Shown: in pieces, positions 6,954 through 43,795 of the stretch
Layout: every line of letters starts with the position of its first letter
Position numbering within the stretch: the stretch's first letter is position 1
Source of the DNA: Phycisphaerae bacterium
GTDB taxonomy: Bacteria > Planctomycetota > Phycisphaerae > UBA1845 > Fen-1342
Length of the DNA: 64,000 bases
NCBI GenBank assembly: GCA_963675745.2
Contig: CAXXWX010000016.1
Location: 96,001-160,000, forward strand
Reading direction: 5' to 3'
Program-made: the position numbers and the translations under genes
Notes under the pieces: generated by a model
The model's input: only the letters and a program-made list of their open reading frames with translations
Databases searched by the model: none
Told to the model about the DNA's origin: nothing

Positions 6954-8135
6954 ATGGCGGAAGTCACTCTTGAGAACATCGTCAAAATCTACCCCGGTGA
7001 CGTCAAAGCCGTTGATGACGTCAGCCTGACCATCAATGATCGCGAGTTCATCGTGCTCGTCGGCCCCTCCGGCTGCGGCAAGAGCACCACGTTGCGCATG
7101 ATCGCCGGCCTCGAAGACATCACCGCCGGCACGATACGCATCGGCGACCGCACGGTGAATGGCGTGGCGCCCAAGGACCGCGACATCGCCATGGTCTTCC
7201 AGAACTACGCGCTCTACCCGCACATGACGGTCTACAAGAACATGGCGTTCGGCCTGTTGCTGCGGCGCAAGCACGGATTCTGGGATAACTTTCTGTGGGC
7301 GTTGCTCAATCCGCCGGCGCACAAGCGGGCCCGCGCCGAACGCATGGAAATCGACGCACGCGTGCGTGACGCCGCCCGTGTGCTCGGCATCACCGAGCTG
7401 CTAAATCGGCGCCCCAAGGCCCTCTCAGGCGGACAGCGCCAGCGCGTGGCAGTCGGACGCGCGATTGTGCGCCAACCCAAGGCGTATCTCTTTGACGAAC
7501 CCCTCTCGAACCTCGATGCCAAGCTGCGTGTCGAGATGCGGGCCGAAATCAAGAAAATCCACCGCCAGGTAAACACCACCACGATTTACGTCACGCACGA
7601 CCAGGAAGAGGCGATGACGCTGGGCGATCGCGTGGTGGTGATGAAGGACGGCATTATCCACCAATGCGCGTCGCCTTTTGACGTCTACGACCGCCCGGTC
7701 AACCGCTTTGTCGCCGGTTTTGTCGGAACACCGCCGATGAATTTCCTCACCGGTCGGCTGGTCCGCGAAGGCGGCGCCCTGTTTTTTGATGACGGGGCCA
7801 ATCGCCTGGCGGTGAGCGCGGCACATCAGGGCCGGCTTGAGAGCCACGTGGACAGTCAGGTCATCGCCGGTATCCGCCCCGAGGTGCTCAGCCTGCCCAA
7901 CGGCCAGAAGCGCGCCAACTCGACGCTAAAGCTCAATGTCACCGTGGTCGAACCCCTCGGTGACCGGATGGACATCTACACCGACACCGAGCGCGGCGCC
8001 CGCGTGGTCTGCCGCGTCGACGCGCGCAGCGAGGTCGAAGAAGGCCACGCGATGGATATGCAGGTTGATATGGATCGGGTACACTTCTTCGAGTCGAAGG
8101 AGGACGGCCTGAATATCAGCCTCGGCGAGACGTAG
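6954..8135 (+). CDS. MalK/UgpC/MsiK-type sugar ABC transporter ATP-binding protein (stand-alone)
   Basis: Start re-called to MAEVTLENI after a [50 protein letters not shown] and a C-terminal TOBE-like region. Confidence 0.92.
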
Positions 8136-8236
8136 CTTCGCACGGGGTTGTGGGACCAGCGCCGGGTTGAGTCAACCGCCCGGGCCCTGTCCCGCCGCCC
8201 GGCCTTCCGGACCCGAGTCGGTCTTATCGGAGACTC

Positions 8237-8268
8237 ATGGGGTCGCACGTTGCGGCCCATTTTTATTG
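8237..8268 (+). terminator. Terminator-like hairpin in the nusA leader
   Basis: ATGGGGTCGCA-CGT-TGCGGCCCAT followed by TTTTATT, about 130 nt before nusA. Confidence 0.55.
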
Positions 8269-8395
8269 CCCGCGGCTGGTCCGCGGAAAGCCGGACAACT
8301 GAATATGGTCGAGTCGCCTTCAACCAAAGCCGCTTGCCGGGCTGCCCGCGTAAACGGCCGGAGGCGCACAGTGCCACCGAAAGGCGGTAACAAGC

Positions 8396-9943
8396 ATGAA
8401 CCAGGATCTGCCCCGCATCATCGACGGTATCTGCCGTGAAAAGAACATCGATCGCGAATCGTTCATCGCGGACCTCGAAAACGCCATCGCCAGCGCCGTG
8501 CGCCGGGCCTACGGCGAGATGGAAGAGGTCGAGGTACATCTCGACATGCTGAACGGGCAGATCGCCGCGACCATCAACGGCGAGCCCATCGACATGGCCA
8601 CGCTTGGTCGCATTGCCGCCCAGACCGCCAAACAGGTCATCGTGCAGAAAACACGCGAGCGCGAACGCACCAGCATTTTTGAGGAGTTCACCGAGCGTAA
8701 GGGCACGATAGTCACCGGAACGGTCGTCCGCGCCGAACGCGGCAACCTGCTCGTGAACCTCAGCCGCACAGAGGGTTTTCTGCCGCGCAGCGAACAGATC
8801 CCCGGCGAGACACACCCGGTCGGGGCGCGCATACGCGTGCTGATCCTGGATGTGCGCGAGCAGGGCAACCAGGTAAAGGTTGTGCTTTCGCGTTCGCATC
8901 CAGACCTCATTCAACGTCTGTTCGAGCTCGAGGTGCCCGAAGTTGCCGAACGCATTATCGAGATCAGGGCGTTGGCGCGCGAAGCCGGCTATCGCAGCAA
9001 GGTGGCGGTTACCAGCATTGACTCAAAGGTTGACGCCGTCGGTGCGTGTGTTGGCGTCCGCGGTAGCCGAATCAAGAACATCGTCGACGAGCTCAGCGGC
9101 GAGAAGATCGATATCGTGCGCTGGAACGAATCGAGCCAGATTCTGATCCAGAACTCGCTGAAACCGGCGGAGGTCCAGGAAATCGCCCTGTGCTTCGAGC
9201 TTAACAAGGCGATCGTCGTGGTGACCGAAGACCAGCTTTCACTGGCGATCGGCAAGCGCGGGCAGAACGTACGCCTGGCCGCCCGGCTGACCAAGTGGGA
9301 CATCGATATCCTCACGCCGGCCGAGTACAACCGGAATCTCGAGACCATGGAGAAAACGGTCAAGGGCGTCGAGGGCGTTGACGACCTGGTCGTCGACAAG
9401 CTGGTCGCCGTCGGCTGCGTATCGGTGGCGGACATCGATGAGGTCGGCCCCGAGCCGCTCGTCGCCGAGCTCGAACTGGACCCCGAACTGGCCGAACGCA
9501 TAGTCGTCGAGTGCGGCGAAGAAGCCATCCGCCAGGAAGAGCTCAAAGAGGCGGCTCAGAAGAAAGCGGCGGAAGAGGCCGCCGCGGCGCGCGAGCTGGA
9601 AGAGAGCGCGCCGTCCACGCCATCCGCCTTTGTCCCCACCGAGGGCATCCCCACTGCCACGCCGGCCGATTCACCATCGGACAGCGCAGACGCTGCCGTG
9701 CCCGTGACGGCGACGAGCGAGGCAGAAGCCGGGGCCGAGAGCGCGGCGGTGACCACGCCCGCGGCGGAGCCGGATGCCGAGGTGCCCGAGGGTTCAGCGC
9801 CGACTGATCTTATCGCCGGCTCAACCGTCCCGGGAGACACGTCGGACGAGCCACCCGCCGACGACACCCCCGCCACCGAAGGTGTCACCGCCAACAGCGA
9901 TGAGCCGCCGGCGACGGACGAGACAAAACCCGCTGACAGCTAG
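8396..9943 (+). CDS. nusA: Transcription termination/antitermination factor NusA with long acidic low-complexity tail
   Basis: LGRIAAQTAKQVI, S1 domain, AREAGYRSKVAV, GACVGVRGSRI, QLSLAIGKRGQNVRLAARLT. Confidence 0.97.
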   Translation: MNQDLPRIIDGICREKNIDRESFIADLENAIASAVRRAYGEMEEVEVHLDMLNGQIAATINGEPIDMATLGRIAAQTAKQVIVQKTRERERTSIFEEFTERKGTIVTGTVVRAERGNLLVNLSRTEGFLPRSEQIPGETHPVGARIRVLILDVREQGNQVKVVLSRSHPDLIQRLFELEVPEVAERIIEIRALAREAGYRSKVAVTSIDSKVDAVGACVGVRGSRIKNIVDELSGEKIDIVRWNESSQILIQNSLKPAEVQEIALCFELNKAIVVVTEDQLSLAIGKRGQNVRLAARLTKWDIDILTPAEYNRNLETMEKTVKGVEGVDDLVVDKLVAVGCVSVADIDEVGPEPLVAELELDPELAERIVVECGEEAIRQEELKEAAQKKAAEEAAAARELEESAPSTPSAFVPTEGIPTATPADSPSDSADAAVPVTATSEAEAGAESAAVTTPAAEPDAEVPEGSAPTDLIAGSTVPGDTSDEPPADDTPATEGVTANSDEPPATDETKPADS

Positions 9944-33115: not shown

Positions 33116-33682
33116 CTACACCTCCATGATGTCCTTCGATTTCTCGTTCGTCAGGCTGTCGATCTCGCGGCAATACGTGTCGGTCAGCTTCTGAATCTGA
33201 TCCTGGCCGCGCTCGCAGTCATCTTCCGGCAACGTCTTGGCCTTTTTCTCGGCATCGAGCGCCTTGTTGGCATCGCGGCGGAGATTGCGAATGGCCGTCT
33301 TCTGTTGCTCGGCCAGCTTCTTCACATGCTGTACAAGCTGATCACGTCGCTCGGTCGAGAGCGCCGGCACCGGCAAGCGGATCATCTTGCCGTCGTTCTG
33401 AGGGTTAATCCCCAATTCGCTGCCTTCGAGGGCTCGCTGAATGTCCTTGAGCGTCGAGGGATCGTAGGGCTTTATCACGATCACGTTGCCCTCGGCCACG
33501 GCGACGTTGCCCAGCTCCTTCATCGACATTGTCGAGCCGTATGCCTCGACATTGACCTTGAGACCATCAACCAGTCCGGCGGACGCCCGGCCTGTCCGAA
33601 CTCCACGGTATTCCTGACGCAGAAAATCGACCGCCTTCTTCATCTGCTGTTCGGTCTGGGATACGGTGTCATCTAGCGGCAT
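33116..33682 (-). CDS. frr: Ribosome recycling factor
   Basis: VRTGRAS, LGINPQNDG..IRL.VP.LS.ERR, IRNLRRDAN, KSKDIMEV; AAGGAG RBS. Confidence 0.97.
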   Translation of the reverse strand: MPLDDTVSQTEQQMKKAVDFLRQEYRGVRTGRASAGLVDGLKVNVEAYGSTMSMKELGNVAVAEGNVIVIKPYDPSTLKDIQRALEGSELGINPQNDGKMIRLPVPALSTERRDQLVQHVKKLAEQQKTAIRNLRRDANKALDAEKKAKTLPEDDCERGQDQIQKLTDTYCREIDSLTNEKSKDIMEV

Positions 33683-33828
33683 CTGAGCTGCTCCTTCGAT
33701 GGATGGTTGGCCAGGATAACCAGCATAGCCAGCGACCCTGTCGCCGACAACCCGGCGGCGTTGGACCCCGCCGTGTGGCGGCCGTGACACCTGCGCGTGG
33801 AATTCCGCACGCGTCATCGTCGAGTCAT

Positions 33829-34079: not shown

Positions 34080-36281
34080 CTAGCGTTTTCCGATGACTTC
34101 TCTGATCGTCTCGATCAGCGCGTCGTTCATGAATGGTTTGTGGATGATCGCCGCCGGTCGCGCCCCGCTTGGCCGGTCCCCGCCGTATTCCTTGACATAC
34201 CCGCTGACCATGATCACTTTTGCACTGGGGCGAGTGGCCAGAATCTCCTCATACACTTCCCAGCCGCCTTTGCCAGGCATGATCAGATCCAGCAGCACAA
34301 CGTCTATCCGGCTGGCGTATTCCTGGAAGATCTCGACGCCCTTGGTGCCGTTTTCGGCGGTCAGCACGTCAAAGCTGTTGTTTTCGAGCACGTCGCGGAG
34401 AACGTCCCGTACGTCATCATCGTCGTCGATGACCAGCACGGTCGGCTGGCCCCGCTCCTCGGCATGCTTTGCGCTGGTGGCGGTGGCGGTGGCGGGTCGC
34501 GGCGACATTGGGAGGGCAACCGTGAAGCGCGCCCCGGTGCCCACTTCGCTCTCGACGCGCACGCCTCCCTGATGCGCGCGCACAGCCCCGCGCATCGCCG
34601 CCAATCCCAATCCGCGTCCATCGGCCTTGGTCGAGAAGAACGGTTCAAAAATACGCCGCGCCGTATCCTGGTCCATGCCGCAGCCGGTGTCGCGCACATG
34701 CACGCAGGCGAAGGCACCCGGTTCGAGCGACTGTCCCGGAAACAGCCGACGCAGTTCCTCGGCCCCCCACTCGCTGCGGCTGGCCGAGGCGCTTATCGTG
34801 CCCGGCGCGTCGCCGATCGCTTCGATGGCGTTGACGAGCAGATTCGTGATCACTTGTTGGAGTTGGGCGGCGTCCGCCTCGATTTCGAGAGGCTCACCGC
34901 GCGGCTTCAAGTCCAATGTGATGGCGCGCGGCACGGTGGGCCTGATGAACTCGACCGTGTCGTGTACCAGCTCGTGCAAATCGAGCTTTGCCGTCTCGCG
35001 TGTCTTTCGCCCGGCACATGTCAGGATCTGATCGACGACCGCCGAGGCGCGCTTGCAGGCGCCGACCACACGCTCGATGCGCGCGCAGACGGGCGAGTCG
35101 CCGCCGAGTTCGCTCAGTGCCAGGCTGGCGTTTCCTTGTATGCCGGTGAGCATGTTGTTCAGATCATGCGCGATTCCGCCGGCCAACAATCCCAGGCTCT
35201 CGAGGCGTTCTGAAGCGCTGATCTGCGCCTCGAGCTCCCGCCGTTCGCGTTCGGCGTTGTGTTGCTCGGTTTTGTCGACAAACAGCAGCACCGCACCGAT
35301 CACGTCCGGTCCGGCGTGCATCGCGGTTATCGAATAAGCGACCGGGAACCGTGAGCTGTCGGCGCGCGTGAACTCACCCTCACAACGCAACAGGGCGGCC
35401 CGGCTATCCAGGATGGCGTCGATCGGCGAGTTGACCGGTGCCGCGTCAGGCTCATCGAGGCTGCCGAAAATGTCGCGTGCCGAAGTCCCGATCAGCTCAC
35501 CGCCGCGCACACCGAGCATCGCCTCGGCCGCGGGATTCGTGAAGGCGATGTTGCCGCTGCGGTCTAGCCCGACAATGCCTTCGCCCGCCGAATCGAGAAT
35601 CAGACGCTGCTCGCGAGTCAGGCGCGCGAGTTGCTCTTCGGCGCGCTTGCGGTCGGTCACATCGCGCGCAAATGCGACCAGAATCTTAGCGCCGTTGTCG
35701 TGCAACACGTTGACGCTGATCTCCAGATAGACGATGTGGCCGTTTTTGTGGCGATGGGCCGTGGGAAAATGGTGCAGCCCGGTCTGGGTGTGTGATGGAA
35801 CGCCGCCATCCGCCTGGTTTTCCGCCTCCAGGTCGGTAATCCGCATGCGCATCAGCTCATCATTCGAGTAGCCGGTCATGCGACAGAAGGCTTCGTTGAC
35901 TTCCAGAAAGCGGCAATCCTGGTCCACGACAAAGAACCCGTCCATGGAGCAGCGCAGGATCGCCTCGTTGCGTCTGGCGAGTGCGGCCAGGCGCCGTTTG
36001 GAGCTGTTGAACTCGTCTTCGTCATAGAGGAACACCAGGGCCGGCACCTCCGGTGTCGCCTTGGTCTGGAGCGGGACGATGTCCACCACCAGCATCGGCG
36101 CGGAGCTCTGCGTGATGGTCAGGCGCTGTCGCTGGCCACCCACGCAGGCGGCCTCGAGCATCTGCATGAATTCCTCGTGCGACTCCTCCGGCAGGCGTGC
36201 CAGGATGTTCTGCGTCGCCGACTCCACTCCGGAACTGGTCCGGACGCAATTGGCGGCTCGATCGACAAGGGCCCAGTTCAT
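34080..36281 (-). CDS. Cytoplasmic hybrid histidine kinase (2 PAS, HisKA, HATPase, receiver)
   Basis: AGGIAHDLNN, NLLVNA, DTGCGM, FEPFFSTK, GRGLGL; receiver VIDDDD...LLDLIMP...IHKPF. Confidence 0.93.
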   Translation of the reverse strand: MNWALVDRAANCVRTSSGVESATQNILARLPEESHEEFMQMLEAACVGGQRQRLTITQSSAPMLVVDIVPLQTKATPEVPALVFLYDEDEFNSSKRRLAALARRNEAILRCSMDGFFVVDQDCRFLEVNEAFCRMTGYSNDELMRMRITDLEAENQADGGVPSHTQTGLHHFPTAHRHKNGHIVYLEISVNVLHDNGAKILVAFARDVTDRKRAEEQLARLTREQRLILDSAGEGIVGLDRSGNIAFTNPAAEAMLGVRGGELIGTSARDIFGSLDEPDAAPVNSPIDAILDSRAALLRCEGEFTRADSSRFPVAYSITAMHAGPDVIGAVLLFVDKTEQHNAERERRELEAQISASERLESLGLLAGGIAHDLNNMLTGIQGNASLALSELGGDSPVCARIERVVGACKRASAVVDQILTCAGRKTRETAKLDLHELVHDTVEFIRPTVPRAITLDLKPRGEPLEIEADAAQLQQVITNLLVNAIEAIGDAPGTISASASRSEWGAEELRRLFPGQSLEPGAFACVHVRDTGCGMDQDTARRIFEPFFSTKADGRGLGLAAMRGAVRAHQGGVRVESEVGTGARFTVALPMSPRPATATATSAKHAEERGQPTVLVIDDDDDVRDVLRDVLENNSFDVLTAENGTKGVEIFQEYASRIDVVLLDLIMPGKGGWEVYEEILATRPSAKVIMVSGYVKEYGGDRPSGARPAAIIHKPFMNDALIETIREVIGKR

Positions 36282-36341
36282 CGTGTGGCTCCTTGTTCGG
36301 ACGCCTTGCAGAGAACCGCCGCGCGCACGATCGCTGGCTTT

Positions 36342-38807
36342 TTATGCATCGCTTCCCCCTTCTCGAACTGGAGGTCTCGGTACCCGCGCGGCGCCGGAAC
36401 TCACCAATCGCTGCATCGCCTCTGACTTCTGGCGCCTGGCCGCCTCCTCCATGGGTGCGTTCGAGTGTCGTCGAGCCAATTCGATGCGCTGGTCGGCGCA
36501 GCGAACCGCCTCGTTGAAATTGGAGAGCTTGAGGTTGAGCTCGGCCATGTGGTCATAGACGCGGGCGAGCCCGTTCCAGAACTTGGTGTGAACGAGGATG
36601 TTCAGCGCGACGGCCAGCTCATTCTTGGCGTCCAGCAGCCGCCCCATCAGCATCGCGCAGTTGCCCAGGTTCATGTACGCCACGCCTTCGTTGACGCGGT
36701 CATCGCTCTCCTGTGCCAACGCCAGCGCCCGCCTGAAGTAGCCGCGCGCCTCTTCAAAACGCTTCTGTTCGCGGAGCACGTGCCCCACGCCGGTATACGG
36801 CCCGATGAGCGAGATGAGCGCGCCATTGCGCTTGTGCGTGTCGATCGCCTGCTGGTAGCTCCTTTCGGCGTCAGTAGCGCGCCCGAGCTGCAATAACACA
36901 TATCCAAGATTGTTGCGGATACGCGCAAGTTCTGCGCTAAGCCCGAGCGTCTCGGAAGCCTGCGCCGCACGCTCCAGGCAACTGTTGGCGGATTCGTAAT
37001 CGCCCTGGAAGTAGTACATCGAGCCGAGGTTGGCATGTGCTTCGATTTTCAGGCGCTCATCGCCGGCGCGCGCTGCCAGTTCGCGCTGCCGCCTGTTGTA
37101 CTCGACGGCGTCTGCGTAGCGGCCCATGCGCGCACAGCACACGCCGACGAAACCGACGGCCTCGCCGAAGTTCGCATCAAGCCTGATTGCCTCGAGTCCG
37201 AGCTTCATCGCCGTCTCGTAATCGCCGCGCAGGAAAGCGCGTTTTCCGGTGAAGAACTGCTCTTCCGCCGCGGGAATGCGCGTGGCAGCGGTCCCGGCGA
37301 CCGCCGCCCGGCTCGCCGTTGCCAGTCCGAGTCGGCGTGTAAGCCGACCGAGCAGCTCGCTCTCCAAGTCAGCAAGCGCCGATAATGCCCCGGTCACCGC
37401 CTCGACACGCATGGGTTCCGTCTGCGGCGCCTGGTGGGCACGTACGCTCAGTTTTATCGTGTCGCCGCTGCGTTCAAAAACACCCTCAACTACGGAGGCC
37501 GCACCACTGAGACGTCCGGCGTGCAGAAGTTGCGCCACGTGTGGGCCGCTCTCGCGGGCACGTACACGTTCGAGCGTTTGCAGGTACTGATTCACGTCAA
37601 CTACATATGTGCCCTCGTACTGGCCGAGCGAGCGTGCCAGGTGATCCGCGAGGGCCTGGCCGATCCAATCGTCACCATCGGTACGCGAGGCGTTCTCGAA
37701 GGGTAGCACGACCACACCACGCGGTTCGGGGAAGACGGGGGCACCGGCGGGAGCAACCTGTGTGCCGGGGCGCGACGGGTTCTCCAGATAGTCCACGAGC
37801 GCCGCCGGCGACGGAAAACGCTCGCGTGGGTCTTGGGCGAGCAGGCGCAGAATGGCGTTGCGGAGCCAGTCAGGCGCATCCTGAGCGCCCGACTCGGGCC
37901 AGGTAATGGCCTGATCCCCTCCGTTCAGCAGCGTCCGATATACGCTGTCGCCGCGCGGCGCCGTGCCGGTGACAAGCTCGAACAGCGTGGCCCCCAGGGC
38001 ATACAGATCGGCGGGAGGCCCAGCCGGCTCCTCTCCCGCGAGCACCTCGGGCGCGGCGTAGGCGAGCGTACCAACCCGGTCGCTGGCGCCTTGCGGCGTC
38101 GCGTCATCCGCCTCGGGCATCAGTCCGACCACTCCCAGGTCGGCAATCCGCAGTGCCCCGTCGACACCCAGGATCAGGTTGCTGGGCTTGATGTCGCGAT
38201 GAATCAGACCTGCGCGATGGATTGCTTCGAGACCGCTGGCGGCGTCGACGGCGAACTGTGTCACTTGCCGCCAGTCGATTACTCCCGCGCACTCCCGGGC
38301 CCGCGCCAGGTCGACACCGTCAATGAAATCCATGACGAAATACCAGATGTTCTCAAAAATATCGCCATCGAGGACGCGGACCACATTGGCGTGGTTCACA
38401 CGAAAACCGGCGGATGCCTCACGGCGCAGGCGGTGTACATCGCGATCGGACGCATCCGCCACCCGGTGGGGCAGAACCTTCACGACGCAGGGGTGGTTGA
38501 GAAACTCGTGGTGGGCGAGGTAGGTCAGGCCGTGGGCCCCACATCCGATCAACTCCACCAGCCGGTAGCGATCCCGGAGCGTGCTGCCTAGCGGAAACGG
38601 CGCAGTTATCGGCGGTGCTGGCGCAGCCGAGTCACGAGAGCCGCGACGTGGGAGCGGTACCAAATGCGCGCACGCCTCACAGCGCGCCAACCGCTCCGAG
38701 ACGTTACGGAGCGTGCCGTGCTCACGGCAGTACGTGCATGGCCCCACGTTTTGGGGCCAGGCGTCATCGCGTGCCACCTGAGCCCTGTTCGAGGGGGTGG
38801 CCGCCAT
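36342..38807 (-). CDS. Ser/Thr protein kinase with N-terminal Zn ribbon, TolB-N-like domain and C-terminal TPR array
   Basis: CTYC...CEAC; IGCGAHG, VVKVL, HRDIKPSN, IADLG, GTLAYAAPE; VVVLPFEN; multiple TPRs (ANLG, NNLG, MNLG); no TM segment. Confidence 0.9.
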   Translation of the reverse strand: MAATPSNRAQVARDDAWPQNVGPCTYCREHGTLRNVSERLARCEACAHLVPLPRRGSRDSAAPAPPITAPFPLGSTLRDRYRLVELIGCGAHGLTYLAHHEFLNHPCVVKVLPHRVADASDRDVHRLRREASAGFRVNHANVVRVLDGDIFENIWYFVMDFIDGVDLARARECAGVIDWRQVTQFAVDAASGLEAIHRAGLIHRDIKPSNLILGVDGALRIADLGVVGLMPEADDATPQGASDRVGTLAYAAPEVLAGEEPAGPPADLYALGATLFELVTGTAPRGDSVYRTLLNGGDQAITWPESGAQDAPDWLRNAILRLLAQDPRERFPSPAALVDYLENPSRPGTQVAPAGAPVFPEPRGVVVLPFENASRTDGDDWIGQALADHLARSLGQYEGTYVVDVNQYLQTLERVRARESGPHVAQLLHAGRLSGAASVVEGVFERSGDTIKLSVRAHQAPQTEPMRVEAVTGALSALADLESELLGRLTRRLGLATASRAAVAGTAATRIPAAEEQFFTGKRAFLRGDYETAMKLGLEAIRLDANFGEAVGFVGVCCARMGRYADAVEYNRRQRELAARAGDERLKIEAHANLGSMYYFQGDYESANSCLERAAQASETLGLSAELARIRNNLGYVLLQLGRATDAERSYQQAIDTHKRNGALISLIGPYTGVGHVLREQKRFEEARGYFRRALALAQESDDRVNEGVAYMNLGNCAMLMGRLLDAKNELAVALNILVHTKFWNGLARVYDHMAELNLKLSNFNEAVRCADQRIELARRHSNAPMEEAARRQKSEAMQRLVSSGAARVPRPPVREGGSDA

Positions 38808-38840
38808 GTCCAGGCCTCCTGCCCATCGCGCAAAAACCGC

Positions 38841-38868
38841 TTGACAAAACACTAGTTATCGGTATTTT
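38841..38868 (+). promoter_or_regulatory. Putative sigma70 promoter facing the micro-ORFs
   Basis: TTGACA-N16-TATTTT in an AT-enriched divergent region. Confidence 0.35.
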
Positions 38869-39030
38869 CCACAACTGGCTTAAGGAACCGGTCCGTGTTT
38901 TTTCCGCCCGGCCGTCGCAGCATTTCTGAGCGACATGGGCAACCGAGTTTGACCGCTCAATGTAACTCTCATCGCACTGTCTGATTACGCGGACCATTAC
39001 ACCGGTAACTCATCTCACAGGAGCCCACCA

Positions 39031-39114
39031 ATGGTATCGCTTTGGATCGAATGGACCCAGACGTTCGCCGCGATTTTCGGCACGGTCGTCGACTTCATTG
39101 ACGAGATCACCTGA
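39031..39114 (+). CDS. Micro-ORF 1, 27 aa amphipathic peptide MVSLWIEWTQTFAAIFGTVVDFIDEIT
   Basis: AGGAG Shine-Dalgarno ending 7 nt before the ATG; mostly G/C third positions; below the ORF-track size cutoff. Confidence 0.55.
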   Translation: MVSLWIEWTQTFAAIFGTVVDFIDEIT

Positions 39115-39141
39115 GCCCCACAGCCTGGAAGGGAATTTCCA

Positions 39142-39189
39142 ATGATCGTCGAGATCACTGAAGTCGATCACATCTCCACCACCAAGTAG
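39142..39189 (+). CDS. Micro-ORF 2, 15 aa peptide MIVEITEVDHISTTK
   Basis: GGAAGGGA purine-rich RBS, host-like codons, same frame as micro-ORF 1, followed by the palindrome GCCGCGCTAGCGCGGC (39220-39235). Confidence 0.45.
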   Translation: MIVEITEVDHISTTK

Positions 39190-39602
39190 CCGTCTGCTGC
39201 TGGTTTGTTGGTCCGCGGCGCCGCGCTAGCGCGGCCCTGTGGTAATGCGCGCGTCATGCCGCGGATGGTCGGTGGCCATAGCTGCCGGCCGGTGCCCCCT
39301 GCCTCTTGACTTCCCCACCACATCTCCGTGTTTTGCCTGTACCGCCGCACAGAATCGTCGTGGTCGGCGTGCGTCGTGCGCGTTCGTACTTGTTGATAAT
39401 TGTAGCGGACCTGACGTGCGACGGACCTGCGCGCCACAATGTTCGAGCGTGTCCGCGGCGGCGTTGTCGCGCCACCTCGACACAACTGGGATCGAGAACC
39501 ATCAAACACAGCTCGCGCCATGCCCCAATCCGGCGGGGAGATTCGCCAGTGCATCCACGTGGATGGCCAGCGCTGCGGCGCGTTGTACGAGGAGATTGAA
39601 TC

Positions 39603-41702
39603 GTGATCACCAGACTCGGACCCCGGTGGCTGGTGGCGCTGTGCGTCACGCTGCTCTGGCCACCGATCGGACATGCGGATGTCGTGGAGCTGTTCGATGG
39701 CACGCGATACACGAGCGATTCAGTCACGCTGGAGAACGGCGTCGCCAAGCTCGCCGACGGCCGGTCGATTCCCCGGAGTGAGATACGCCAGATCCTGTTC
39801 GACAGCAGCGAAGCCGGCGACAGCGCTGGCGAAGTGCACGCCGGCGATACCGACGTCCAGATGTTGCTGGATCAGGCACAGGCCGCCCGCGAGAAGTACC
39901 CCGATGTCGGCGCCATCCAGCTCATCGATACCGGAGTATGGACGCTACGACCCGACGGAACACAGTTACACCGCGAGCACGCGGCGACGCTGATTCTGAA
40001 GGAGCCCTGGAAATCTCTCGGCCGCATTGCGGAGTCATACGAGGACGGGCGCGATCGCGCGACGCTCGTGCGGGCCCGGACGATCTCGCCTGAGGGTGAC
40101 GTCTACGATTTCGACCCGGCGGAGCTGAAGGAAGCCAAGCCGACCGGCGGAATGGAGTATTTCCAGCCGTACAAGACGGTTACCGGGCAACTGCCCAACG
40201 TCGAGACGGGGTCTATCGTCGAGACGATCTGGGAGGTGGAGACGTACAACCCCTATGACAAGGAGTTGTTCTTCCCACGGTGGTATTTCGGCGGTACGGA
40301 ACCAAACCTGGACAGCCGTGTGACCATCCGCGTGCCGCGCGGGCGCGGGCTTTACTACAAGGCCTACAACTTCGGCGACCGCAATGCGGACCCCAAGCAA
40401 TGGGATGAGGATGATTACCACGTCTATCAGTGGGAACTGAGTGACGTCGAGTACATCGTCTCGGAACCGATCATGCCGCCGGTAGCCACGGTCGTGCCGC
40501 ATGTGGTCGCATCGCTGCACAAGGATTGGGACCACATTTACGACTACCTCGGACGGATGCAACGCGAGCACACGCAGGTTACCCCCGAAATCGAGCAGGC
40601 CGTCGCCGAGATCATCGGCGATAGCACCGACAAAGAGGAGATCATCGCGAAGATCTACCATTGGCTGCAGCGCGAGATACGTTATATCTCGATCAAAGGC
40701 AGTCTCGGCTCGGGCTGGTCGGGGCATCCGGCGACGCTGACACTCAAGAACAAATACGGGGACTGCATCGACAAGGCGACGCTCTTTGCCACCATGCTCA
40801 AGGCCGCCCAGATCAAGGCCGAGCCGGTCGTGTTGGCGACCTACAGCATGCCCGACGATGACCGTGAGATCCCAAGCCTGTGGGGGAATCACGCGATCAC
40901 GGAAGTTCACCTCGGCGATCGCTCGTTCCATCTGGACTGCACGGGCACGTCCTTCCGCTATCCCTATCTGCCGATGCTCGACCACGGTGTCACGACAATC
41001 AACATGCTCGAGCGCAAGATCGGACGGGTCGAAGTGCCGCGCGCGGATCAAAACGCGATCAGCTTGAACGTGCGGATGAAGCTGGAAGACAACGGCGACG
41101 TGAAGGCCGTTATCAAGATCGACAGTAACGGAAGCGCGGAAGGTTTCGCGCGCCAGGGCCTGGAGCAGATCAACAAGCTGCTGCGCAAGACAGTCGCCCA
41201 ACAGGTAATCAACTCCTGGTCGCCGGGTGCCGAGCTGAAGCAGATCAAGGTCAGCGATGACGCCGATCTGGAGACGCCACTGGAGATCACCCTCAAAATC
41301 CTGCTGCCGGATTATCCGTCGCGGGCCGGTGACCTGATGATTTTGAAGCTGCCGCTGGCGGATCTGACCAAGTCGATGGCGGCCATTGCAGCGCTGCAGC
41401 AGCGTGAGTTCGACATCCTGATGCCCTCGACGATGTCGCTGCGGCAGAACATCCGCGTTGATCTGCCCGCGGGCTACACCTCGAAGGGCCTGCCGGAGGA
41501 TGCGCACCTCGAAACACCCTACACGAGCTATGACGCCAGCTATCGCCTCGAGGACGGCGCGATCGTCTTCGAGGACAACCTGAGCCTTAACGCGCGCTCG
41601 ATCCCGCATGAGGACTATGGGGAATTCAGACGCTTCATGCAGGCCTTCAGCGACTATGCCAGGGTCCCGCTCTTCATCGCCAAGACGGAGGACGAGCTAT
41701 GA
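39603..41702 (+). CDS. Secreted DUF3857 + transglutaminase-like domain protein (catalytic Cys/His/Asp present)
   Basis: Signal peptide; IRYISI...YGDCIDKATL...GNHAIT...HLDCT. Confidence 0.85.
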   Translation: MITRLGPRWLVALCVTLLWPPIGHADVVELFDGTRYTSDSVTLENGVAKLADGRSIPRSEIRQILFDSSEAGDSAGEVHAGDTDVQMLLDQAQAAREKYPDVGAIQLIDTGVWTLRPDGTQLHREHAATLILKEPWKSLGRIAESYEDGRDRATLVRARTISPEGDVYDFDPAELKEAKPTGGMEYFQPYKTVTGQLPNVETGSIVETIWEVETYNPYDKELFFPRWYFGGTEPNLDSRVTIRVPRGRGLYYKAYNFGDRNADPKQWDEDDYHVYQWELSDVEYIVSEPIMPPVATVVPHVVASLHKDWDHIYDYLGRMQREHTQVTPEIEQAVAEIIGDSTDKEEIIAKIYHWLQREIRYISIKGSLGSGWSGHPATLTLKNKYGDCIDKATLFATMLKAAQIKAEPVVLATYSMPDDDREIPSLWGNHAITEVHLGDRSFHLDCTGTSFRYPYLPMLDHGVTTINMLERKIGRVEVPRADQNAISLNVRMKLEDNGDVKAVIKIDSNGSAEGFARQGLEQINKLLRKTVAQQVINSWSPGAELKQIKVSDDADLETPLEITLKILLPDYPSRAGDLMILKLPLADLTKSMAAIAALQQREFDILMPSTMSLRQNIRVDLPAGYTSKGLPEDAHLETPYTSYDASYRLEDGAIVFEDNLSLNARSIPHEDYGEFRRFMQAFSDYARVPLFIAKTEDEL

Positions 41703-43795
41703 TGCGACGCGTGCTCTATCTCGCGCTAATACCGGCGGTGGCCATAGGCACTACGGCCGGAAACGACGTCCTCTATCTGCTGGACGGTCACGAGCATGTC
41801 GGCCAGTTGCTCAGTGTCACGCCGGACGAGGTCATCTTTCAACTTGACGGCGACGATGCTCCGACCACGTTTGCCCAGGCGCGCGTTCAGCGAATCGACC
41901 TGAGCAAGCGGCGCGTCGGTGATGAGATCACCAACGTAGATCAACTCGATGACCCGCTGCTGCAACGCCTGATTGAGGATCAGCCGCTGAAGGTCTTTTA
42001 CCCCGATTCGGGTTACGTGACGCTGTATCGCGTGCGTGACTACACGCTCGACGAGGACGGCTCGTATACATGTCGTGAGCGCCGCGTGGAGAAGATCCTG
42101 CTCGAACGGGGAAAGTCGCGCGCCAACGTGGCTCGGTATTTCAAGAAGGGTGAGCAGACGCTTGACATCGATTTCGCGCGTACGGTTAACCCGGACGGCT
42201 CGATCACACCAATCTCCGACTCCGCCGTGGATGTCTCCAGCGTAAACGCGGACACGCCGGAGTATGAGAAGCTGTACCAGGTGAAGTTCGCGATGAAACA
42301 GGTCAAGGAAGGGTCGATCATCGACTGGCAGATCACGCGGCGGTATGCCCCGACTGATCTGCTGGATTCGTTTCACACCTCAGTCTTGTTCCAGGAGGAT
42401 GAGCCGATCATCGAGGCGGAGCTGATTGTCCGCGCGCCACACGGACGCTCGGTGGCGCTGCGCGAAGATCGGCTGCGTGACAACATCACGTATGGCAGCG
42501 AGGAAACGGACACACACGTTGTCCACCACTGGGTGGCCACGCAATGCCCGCGCGTCGTCCCCGAGCCGCTCATGCCGCCGGACAACGACTTCTATCCTTG
42601 CGTGACCGTCGCCGAACAGGCGTCGTGGGAGGCGATCGGCGATGCCTATGCGGCGGCCCTGCGGCCAAACGAGACCCCGTCAGCAGCCATTCAAGCGCAG
42701 GTCGCCACGTTGATAGCCGATCTCGACGATCCGGAGCAACGCGCCAAAGCGGTCTACCACTACTTCATCGAGGCGATTCACCAACAGCACATCTCGCCCG
42801 GGGAATACAGCTATGTACCGCACCCGGTCGGCGAGGTGTTCGAACGGCGGGCCGGCAATTCAATCGACAAGTGCCTGCTCTTGTGCGTCATGCTGCGTGA
42901 GGCCGGTGTGCCCGCTTCCATGGTGCTGACGCGCGCGCAGGGCTGGGGCCGGCTTGTCGAGGATATCCCCGGCATTACGCAGTTTGACAGCGCGCTGGTG
43001 GCGGTCGACCTGCCCACGGAGCGCGTCTACCTGCCGGTCACGCGCGACACGCTCCGTTTCGGACAATTGCCCAGCGGATATCAGGGCACACGCGGCCTGC
43101 TGGTGAACGAAAGCGGCGGTCAGCTTGTCGACATACCGCTGAAAGCGCCCGATGAAGAGCTGCACGCGATTGCATTTGAGATGCGGCTGGACGCGAGCGG
43201 CGATATGCATGTCGTGCGCACCGACACCTTTGCGGGCAATGTCGAGGCCGGCCGGCGCAGCGGCTGGAAGGACCGCAAGGACGAGGATTTGCGGCGTGGC
43301 TTTGAGATGGCGATCTCAACCGAAAACCCCAAGGCCCACCTCACCGACTATCGGATTGATAACCTGCACGACGTGACCAAACCGTTGCGGCTCGTCCAGG
43401 AATACACGCTCGAAGGCTACGCCATGCGCGCCGGTGACGATTTGCTGGTGTTTCAACTGCCAACGCTGGACTACACGGCGGGCAGCGTCGGCAAACCGGC
43501 ACGCGATTACCCGATGCGCTGGTACGTACGGAGCAAAACCACGCGCGACATGACGATCACGATTCCCCCGGGATTCAAGGTGTACCACGCCGGCACAGAC
43601 TACGAAGCGGATTGTGGGATTGTGTCGTTCGTCGCGCGTTTCACGACGTCCGACGACGGCATCAGCTATCACGATGAGTTCGTGCAGCACGAACTGGAGG
43701 CGTCGCGCAAGCGATATGGCAGTTACAAGGCCTGCATGGAGACGCGGGCGCGCGTGCCGAAGGAGTGGATCGTCCTGGAACGTGCCGAGGATTGA
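41699..43795 (+). CDS. DUF3857 + transglutaminase-like paralog, catalytically degenerate
   Basis: ATGA overlap with the upstream gene; same architecture but AGNSIDKCLL and QFDSALV replace GDC and NH. Confidence 0.8.
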   Translation: MMRRVLYLALIPAVAIGTTAGNDVLYLLDGHEHVGQLLSVTPDEVIFQLDGDDAPTTFAQARVQRIDLSKRRVGDEITNVDQLDDPLLQRLIEDQPLKVFYPDSGYVTLYRVRDYTLDEDGSYTCRERRVEKILLERGKSRANVARYFKKGEQTLDIDFARTVNPDGSITPISDSAVDVSSVNADTPEYEKLYQVKFAMKQVKEGSIIDWQITRRYAPTDLLDSFHTSVLFQEDEPIIEAELIVRAPHGRSVALREDRLRDNITYGSEETDTHVVHHWVATQCPRVVPEPLMPPDNDFYPCVTVAEQASWEAIGDAYAAALRPNETPSAAIQAQVATLIADLDDPEQRAKAVYHYFIEAIHQQHISPGEYSYVPHPVGEVFERRAGNSIDKCLLLCVMLREAGVPASMVLTRAQGWGRLVEDIPGITQFDSALVAVDLPTERVYLPVTRDTLRFGQLPSGYQGTRGLLVNESGGQLVDIPLKAPDEELHAIAFEMRLDASGDMHVVRTDTFAGNVEAGRRSGWKDRKDEDLRRGFEMAISTENPKAHLTDYRIDNLHDVTKPLRLVQEYTLEGYAMRAGDDLLVFQLPTLDYTAGSVGKPARDYPMRWYVRSKTTRDMTITIPPGFKVYHAGTDYEADCGIVSFVARFTTSDDGISYHDEFVQHELEASRKRYGSYKACMETRARVPKEWIVLERAED

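Follow-up and report, generated by a model that had tools for sequence, protein, structure and literature searches.

Within a 64,000-nucleotide stretch of a Phycisphaerae bacterium contig (CAXXWX010000016.1; 'the window' hereafter), two very short open reading frames (ORFs) lie divergent from a gene encoding a cytoplasmic Ser/Thr kinase with tetratricopeptide repeats (TPRs), which is followed by a PAS hybrid histidine kinase (HK) gene. The first, peptide A (39031-39114, plus strand), encodes 27 aa and has its own ribosome-binding site (RBS), AGGAG, at 39019-39023. The second, peptide B (39142-39189, plus strand), encodes 15 aa and is preceded by its own purine-rich RBS, GGAAGGGA, at 39127-39134. 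Both are unannotated, and both translate as proposed in an earlier, sequence-only reading of this DNA. The kinase-TPR gene (36342..38807, minus strand) encodes 821 aa from an ATG at 38807 with a GGAGG RBS; with this start, the gap of 223 bp to A given in that reading holds.

Peptide A combines a variable, acidic amphipathic helix with a conserved F-I-D-x-[IV]-[TP] at or near its C-terminus. Peptide B is leaderless: it displays M-I-x-x-I-[TS]-x-hydrophobic-D (M-I-x-V-I-T/S-E/D-I-D is the peptide B motif) and a short variable tail. Lengths range from 20 to 38 aa for A and from 14 to 23 aa for B across loci. The N-terminal part of A varies freely in sequence, yet it forms an acidic amphipathic helix throughout, as predicted from the single copy in the window: net charge is negative in 72/72 A peptides, and the helical moment peaks at 100 degrees, with a value of 0.41 against a shuffle maximum of 0.22 (61 peptides). 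B almost always starts one residue ahead of I-x-x-I-[TS]-x-hydrophobic-D. The hydroxyl residue of this motif is T or S in 68 of 68 B peptides, 12 of which were collected by a filter that itself required T/S, and an Asp follows at +3 in 65 of 68. The conserved hydroxyl is thus T6, and the S/T-rich end of B singled out previously turns out to be the variable portion. The triplet EIT, also noted in both peptides, is part of a real common motif (hydrophobic-I-x-x-I-T), although the underlying CGAGATCAC, at 39102 in A and 39150 in B, has 155 copies in the genome. At the matching position, A carries T/S in just 46 of 72 peptides and Pro in 12, which rules out its Thr as a universal phospho-site. Position 10 of B is H or R in the clade whose HKs lack a transmembrane segment, and mostly D elsewhere. 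The pattern pThr-x-x-Asp is a known docking site for FHA domains; none was found among 39 annotated neighbour ORFs.

No known family accounts for these peptides: Pfam returned none for 42 A peptides apart from three single weak hits, NCBIfam had no match for three A peptides, and a search of the ESM Atlas with one 37-aa A gave sub-threshold hits at most. We found no further A or B copies in genome G000. A search of 75 kinase ORFs and 4 XRE proteins for an internal B-like motif was negative; in a looser form, the motif matched 22 of 44 HKs. Some loci contain tandem A and B arrays with up to three of each, some copies being identical and others diverged (L102:1837-2354, L072:5837-6431, L025:4196-4533). 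An aberrant A, with its C-terminal seven residues duplicated internally, was seen at L010:4140-4232.

Are such short ORFs genes at all? Their length and the lack of family matches leave room for an alternative in which they are cis-acting leader peptides, parts of a structured RNA or chance frames. A motif-blind DNA search with the 481-bp intergenic stretch gave matches in three of 60 relatives, which fell on the peptide ORFs, chiefly B. A and B stand divergent from the kinase gene, with order and orientation kept, in all of the first 30 loci, window included. The 104 loci in our pool represent 67 distinct kinases. After exclusion of five whose upstream DNA ran to no more than about 100 bases, 62 remained; 57 of these have A and 54 have B (for one A and three B, the reading came from other analyses, not from the script). 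Third codon positions are the most variable in both peptides. The synonymous-biased change that the sequence-only reading had proposed to look for was found: the ratio of non-synonymous to synonymous change (pN/pS) is 0.36 over codons 2-11 of B and 0.41 in A's six core codons, both below all five other frames. Where position 6 of B is Ser, AGC codons and TCN codons are both in use. Rfam has no match at E<=1. Fusion of A and B by stop-codon read-through is ruled out, the gap between them being 4-91 nt, in any frame. In two contig sets, which may include the source sample, the window's letters are unchanged across the peptides, and one further contig matches only a kinase stretch and B, with similar spacing. 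Judging from these patterns of change, both micro-ORFs are real genes, selected as peptides. The alternative of leaders, RNA or chance is already largely refuted by the synonymous bias, the Rfam result and the retention of pairs megabases from the kinase amid unrelated flanking genes, and we give it hardly any credence.

The peptide genes are preceded by a sigma70-like promoter, TTGACA-16-TATTTT (38841..38868, plus strand), with 10/12 matches in a promoter scan where shuffled sequences average 0.2. A TTATCGG box lies just ahead of its -10 element (38856-38862). The arrangement TTGAC-N~10-TTATCGG before a -10-like hexamer recurs in 32 of 56 ortholog upstream regions under a strict definition and in 39 under a relaxed one. 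The string TTATCGGTA has 13 genome-wide occurrences, which is near the base-composition expectation by a rough estimate. The elements that had previously been pointed out in this region are present but are not shared among orthologs. The GTAACTC(TC)ATC repeats and the TTAC-ACCG-GTAA dyad (38962..39014, plus strand; GTAACTCTCATC at 38962, TTACACCGGTAA at 38997 and GTAACTCATC at 39005) occur only in the window's copy among the 56 upstream regions of orthologs, and are probably incidental. The perfect 16-bp GC palindrome in a hairpin after B (39220..39235) has no U tract and its sequence is not conserved, in a genome that holds 182 perfect palindromes of at least 16 bp; it is a possible transcript end.

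The distribution of the peptides follows that of the kinase. Kinase orthologs are present in 33 of 36 family genomes, and a profile built from 32 B peptides has matches in the same 33; the remaining three (G003, G026 and G031, 97, 99 and 93% complete) have neither kinase nor B. Of 251 genomes from the order, 91 carry the kinase; a B match was obtained in 80 of these 91 and in none of the 160 kinase-less genomes. Across the 301 genomes of the class, neither was found in any family outside the order. The matches within the family are partly circular, having trained the profile, while those in family f7 led to places the profile had not seen. Kinase orthologs that consistently lacked the micro-ORFs would speak against the proposed coupling; we looked for them and found the opposite, so that this attempt at refutation failed. 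Named records with an ortholog are metagenome-assembled Phycisphaerae or Planctomycetota for 55 of 61 loci, the other six being weak partial TPR matches.

In a second family, the peptide pair may also be detached from the kinase gene. We read ten such places, eight retrieved with the B profile and two with an A profile: all contain a complete A and B pair, and none has a kinase in the fetched stretch. Two genomes assembled as single contigs give the distance between pair and kinase: 0.80 Mb in G443 and 1.88 Mb in G496. Because the pair is kept with the kinase even when moved this far away, A and B are tied to the kinase, and they act in trans. Three genomes (G244, G212 and G250) have two kinase paralogs and two A and B pairs each. 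Five detached pairs (L117-L119, L122, L123) converge on one conserved gene with a CxxxCxxC motif, presumably radical-SAM-like.

The kinase-TPR protein comprises an N-terminal Zn-ribbon (CxxC..CxxC), a Hanks-type Ser/Thr kinase, an alpha-beta domain without Pfam match, and an LGN-like TPR region. Pfam identifies Pkinase and TPR domains (TPR_12, E 9.5e-36), and the protein has no transmembrane segment, its best 19-residue hydropathy (1.64) being located in the kinase core; all this agrees with the earlier description of the gene. The kinase is intact: the residues characteristic of the Hanks type (catalytic Lys, HxD-K-N loop, DxG and APE) are each 95-100% conserved in 61 orthologs, with the HRD Arg at 79%. 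No activation-loop Thr is conserved in this set besides that of the GT motif. In the representative library, homologs that match over the full length make up a compact set. At L077 (~7700-9300) the reading frame of the kinase looks shorter, at 762 aa, and between kinase and HK lies a 454-aa ORF on the opposite strand, possibly an insertion.

AlphaFold2 models of the protein are confident (pLDDT 86.5 and 94.5) and display a long TPR superhelix, in which several Asn and Arg residues are more than 90% conserved. With the full model, Foldseek ranks PknG first by E-value, with a whole-chain TM-score of only 0.28 and a root-mean-square deviation (rmsd) of 27 A. The fold of the C-terminal half is closest to LGN/Pins (Z 28.0, rmsd 3.9 over 292 aligned residues), followed by Rap (Z 23.4 and 22.3), NprR (Z 21.3) and PlcR (Z 18.1), and LGN/Pins is also the best natural sequence match. 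The TPR is thus of the peptide-binding type, as the sequence-only reading had supposed; the modelled fold would provide a groove able to hold peptides and implies no ligand. A complex prediction for a same-genus cognate pair, the L011 kinase (764 aa) with its natural 36-aa A, scored 0.02 against a mark of 0.32, controls not having been folded, and counts neither for nor against binding.

Just downstream of the kinase gene lies a PAS-PAS-HisKA-HATPase-REC hybrid HK (34080..36281, minus strand; domains from Pfam), a candidate output. It directly follows the kinase in 28 of 30 loci, and its first PAS domain is distinctive and strongly conserved (44 orthologs), with Thr187 and Thr194 (P0002 numbering) among the conserved residues. 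The HK had been presented as a partner of the kinase. The partnership holds for these loci but is not obligatory, and the lack of a transmembrane segment in the window's HK is specific to its clade: an N-terminal hydrophobic segment is present in 30 of 44 orthologous HKs and missing in 13 of 14 of that clade. In all 12 mapped distant-family loci (L096-L100, L105-L111), no HK adjoins the kinase, and four of them carry an XRE-type regulator with a helix-turn-helix (HTH) instead; there, the XRE-HTH gene lies ahead of the kinase and the peptides beyond it. At L100:1777-2664, L109:2647-3585, L110:6049-6966, L111:6244-7143 and L131:3463-4332, an XRE-HTH gene lies co-oriented just before one family f7 kinase paralog; its product has about 290 aa and carries an unannotated domain at the C-terminus. 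The XRE-HTH protein is a possible alternative output and a possible binder of the TTATCGG box; tblastn gave no match to it in G000.

The proximity of these genes raises the question of which protein the peptides serve. They might regulate another partner, whether the PAS HK, the XRE protein or a phosphatase, the kinase being co-inherited through a shared pathway. The HK next to the kinase in nearly all loci of the first set would fit such a scheme, as would the H/R at B position 10, which tracks the clade with transmembrane-less HKs, though this is one clade and one event. Yet the pair is retained even when the kinase has no adjacent HK or has an XRE gene beside it, and the kinase is the sole constant partner. 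We therefore regard another partner as unlikely.

We think it probable, if only just, that A and B are dedicated, trans-acting intracellular peptide partners of the cytoplasmic kinase-TPR, as ligands or substrates. The acidic motif would dock in the Asn/Arg-lined TPR groove. The soluble B may be a phospho-acceptor at Thr6, or a substrate-like ligand; B rather than A is the candidate acceptor because its T/S is invariant and the Thr of A dispensable. A, with its amphipathic helix, could represent a membrane-surface form of the shared motif that tethers, activates or competes. How active the kinase is toward its output would then depend on the balance of A to B, and that output would be exchangeable: in the window's family the PAS hybrid HK encoded alongside, in some distant loci an XRE regulator. 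One conserved promoter would drive both peptides, with the TTATCGG box as a candidate feedback site.

Several observations weigh against this interpretation. No B hit was obtained in 11 of the 91 kinase genomes; among these 11, two hold a divergent pair and two have A beside a kinase. B was not found beside the kinase in L083, L084 and L114, or in L100. In G368, a kinase of the XRE type occurs together with a detached pair belonging to the other type, and cognate pairing is therefore not strictly one to one. Co-occurrence among relatives reflects few independent events. The motif-filtered peptide sets inflate conservation and lower pN/pS somewhat. Finally, as regards the modelled fold, TPR superhelices look alike whatever their ligand and score high easily.

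Could the peptides instead leave the cell? In this alternative, one or both would be exported (A through its amphipathic leader and intramembrane cleavage, B as a leaderless peptide), re-imported and sensed by the TPR, in a quorum-sensing circuit reminiscent of the RRNPP family or of leaderless communication peptides (LCPs), with a kinase as receptor and in a diderm phylum. The divergent layout of peptide and TPR genes is like that reported for RopB-LCP in the accessible text of PMC10518010, and the amphipathic N-terminus of A recalls AgrD as it is described in the accessible portion of 10.1101/2021.12.29.473670. The tandem copies in L025, L072 and L102 would also suit a signal. Further hints come from the genes 3' of the peptides: in early-branching loci, these encode a membrane HK (8 loci, two with the same kinase), an ABC ATPase, and a fusion of an ABC-2 permease with an Rce1-like protease (3 loci), and in six related loci an OPT-family oligopeptide transporter lies directly 3' of the peptides (L037:4105-6225, L036, L038, L039, L068, L102).

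On the other hand, A has no Sec-type n-region (K/R within the first six residues in 2 of 61) and is always acidic, while B is nearly invariant across genera, unlike diversifying pheromones. The ABC-protease fusion and the second HK are order-wide core genes, present in 55 and 56 of 61 genomes, including the three that lack the cassette; both are ruled out as dedicated, co-distributed partners. No match to AgrB (PF04647) was obtained in G000, which is 91% complete, control genomes also giving none over the cut-off. Overall, cell-to-cell signalling seems possible to us, though doubtful. Slightly more doubtful is its boldest form, a Planctomycetota pheromone system with a Hanks-kinase receptor, in which an amphipathic pro-peptide A and a leaderless phospho-acceptor B would oppose each other on the LGN-like TPR and cell density would be relayed to the PAS HK or XRE protein.

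For the window's family, the membrane HK/ABC/protease cluster represents the ancestral neighbour of the peptide genes. It was seen at L044:1349-6299 (also L059, L072 and L103), where an HK with CxxCH in its outer domain is grouped with the ABC ATPase and the permease-protease fusion. In the window itself, the peptides are followed by two tandem DUF3857/transglutaminase-like genes (39603-43795, plus strand), which we did not see conserved in ortholog loci. On the other side, a Ribosome recycling factor gene (Pfam; 33116-33817 and below, minus strand) lies just 3' of the HK on the same strand and is not a conserved neighbour.

A last alternative, also raised at the outset, considers the kinase as a tailoring enzyme that phosphorylates precursors into a natural product, as in pathways for peptides synthesised by the ribosome and modified after translation (RiPPs). 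Phosphorylation is known among RiPPs, cyanobactin pathways with a PKc-like kinase domain being one case (PMC12639078, in its accessible part), and B does carry an invariant T/S. However, the cassette has no conserved association with a protease, exporter, lyase or cyclase. Lanthipeptide-synthetase and HaaT models stay far under their cut-offs (LanL 107 bits against 650, LanKC 31 against 575, both over the kinase region only). The peptide genes face away from the kinase or lie far off, and B has no leader/core layout. A kinase-tailored RiPP cluster is thus ruled out, and any RiPP-like role is in our opinion very improbable.

To our knowledge, the activators of bacterial Hanks kinases and the ligands of their TPR arrays are mostly unknown. 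Here, a single kinase-TPR family comes with two short candidate ligands, a predicted phospho-site at B Thr6 and two alternative outputs. Since the ligands can be synthesised, the kinase-peptide question is testable in vitro even for these uncultured organisms. Export of the peptides would mean that peptide-TPR communication extends outside Gram-positive bacteria, with a new type of receptor; without export, the cassette would be a small-protein switch of a new kind, one that links Ser/Thr to two-component signalling and that annotation has missed in about 90% of one family's genomes.

How does the cassette compare with known systems? Like Rap-Phr, NprR-NprX, PlcR-PapR and Rgg-SHP, it pairs a cytoplasmic TPR protein with a small peptide from a neighbouring gene, and the TPR fold is similar to Rap, NprR and PlcR (Z 18-23). 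According to the accessible text of PMC10075063, RRNPP systems are recognised by a propeptide of 10-100 aa, a Sec or SHP-like N-terminus, a receptor of about 250-500 aa, TPRs and gene adjacency. The peptide lengths and the TPRs conform. Adjacency holds in the window and in 30/30 first loci but not in 10 distant genomes with detached pairs. The N-termini, judged by composition, are neither Sec signals nor of the SHP-like basic-then-hydrophobic kind, and the receptor, at 821 aa with a Zn-ribbon and a kinase, is far from the expected size. The cassette also differs in having two acidic peptides that can be detached, in its diderm Phycisphaerae host as opposed to Firmicutes, and in a TPR nearer to LGN/Pins by both fold and sequence. 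With receptor size and secretion signal both failing, the cassette does not belong to the RRNPP family invoked in the sequence-only reading, although it may work like RRNPP or LCP systems. RopB-SIP, an LCP system, similarly has a leaderless divergent micro-ORF beside a TPR protein; LCPs as described in the accessible part of PMC10518010 are 8-10 aa, hydrophobic and diverse, whereas B has 14-23 residues and is both acidic and conserved. Neither an HTH nor an Rgg match was obtained for the receptor, in which a kinase stands in place of the HTH of the RopB clan.

Mycobacterial PknG has an N-terminal metal module of Cys pairs. As outlined in the accessible portion of PMC8546545, actinobacterial PknG is a cytoplasmic Ser/Thr kinase with C-terminal TPRs that couple a signal to substrate phosphorylation. 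The resemblance extends to the domain level only. The partners named for PknG in the accessible texts of PMC11032199 and PMC8546545 are GlnX/GlnH and OdhI/GarA, not micro-peptides, and neither GlnH, GlnX nor OdhI-GarA was found among the 39 annotated neighbour ORFs. Whole-chain fold and context thus rule out an identity of the kinase with PknG.

The TPR of LGN/Pins (GPSM2), the best structural and sequence match, has been solved bound to short stretches of partner proteins. It is a eukaryotic scaffold with about 21% identity to the cassette TPR, and sharing a fold says nothing on function. With agr, the cassette shares a nearby HK and, in peptide A, an amphipathic helix at the N-terminus that precedes a short conserved core; it differs in its Cys, which is terminal and found in some A peptides only, and in an adjacent HK without multi-pass sensor domain. 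MroQ belongs to the CPBP/Rce1-like family. It cleaves the amphipathic helix of AgrD (10.1101/2021.12.29.473670, accessible part), which the protease fusion 3' of the peptides in early-branching loci recalls. No such peptides are mentioned in the accessible text of a survey of Planctomycetota kinases (PMC11032199), and we found no description of the cassette in a literature search whose scope left out most subscription journals and supplements. As a gene system, we consider the cassette to be new, and a peptide-controlled signalling switch is the function we propose for it.

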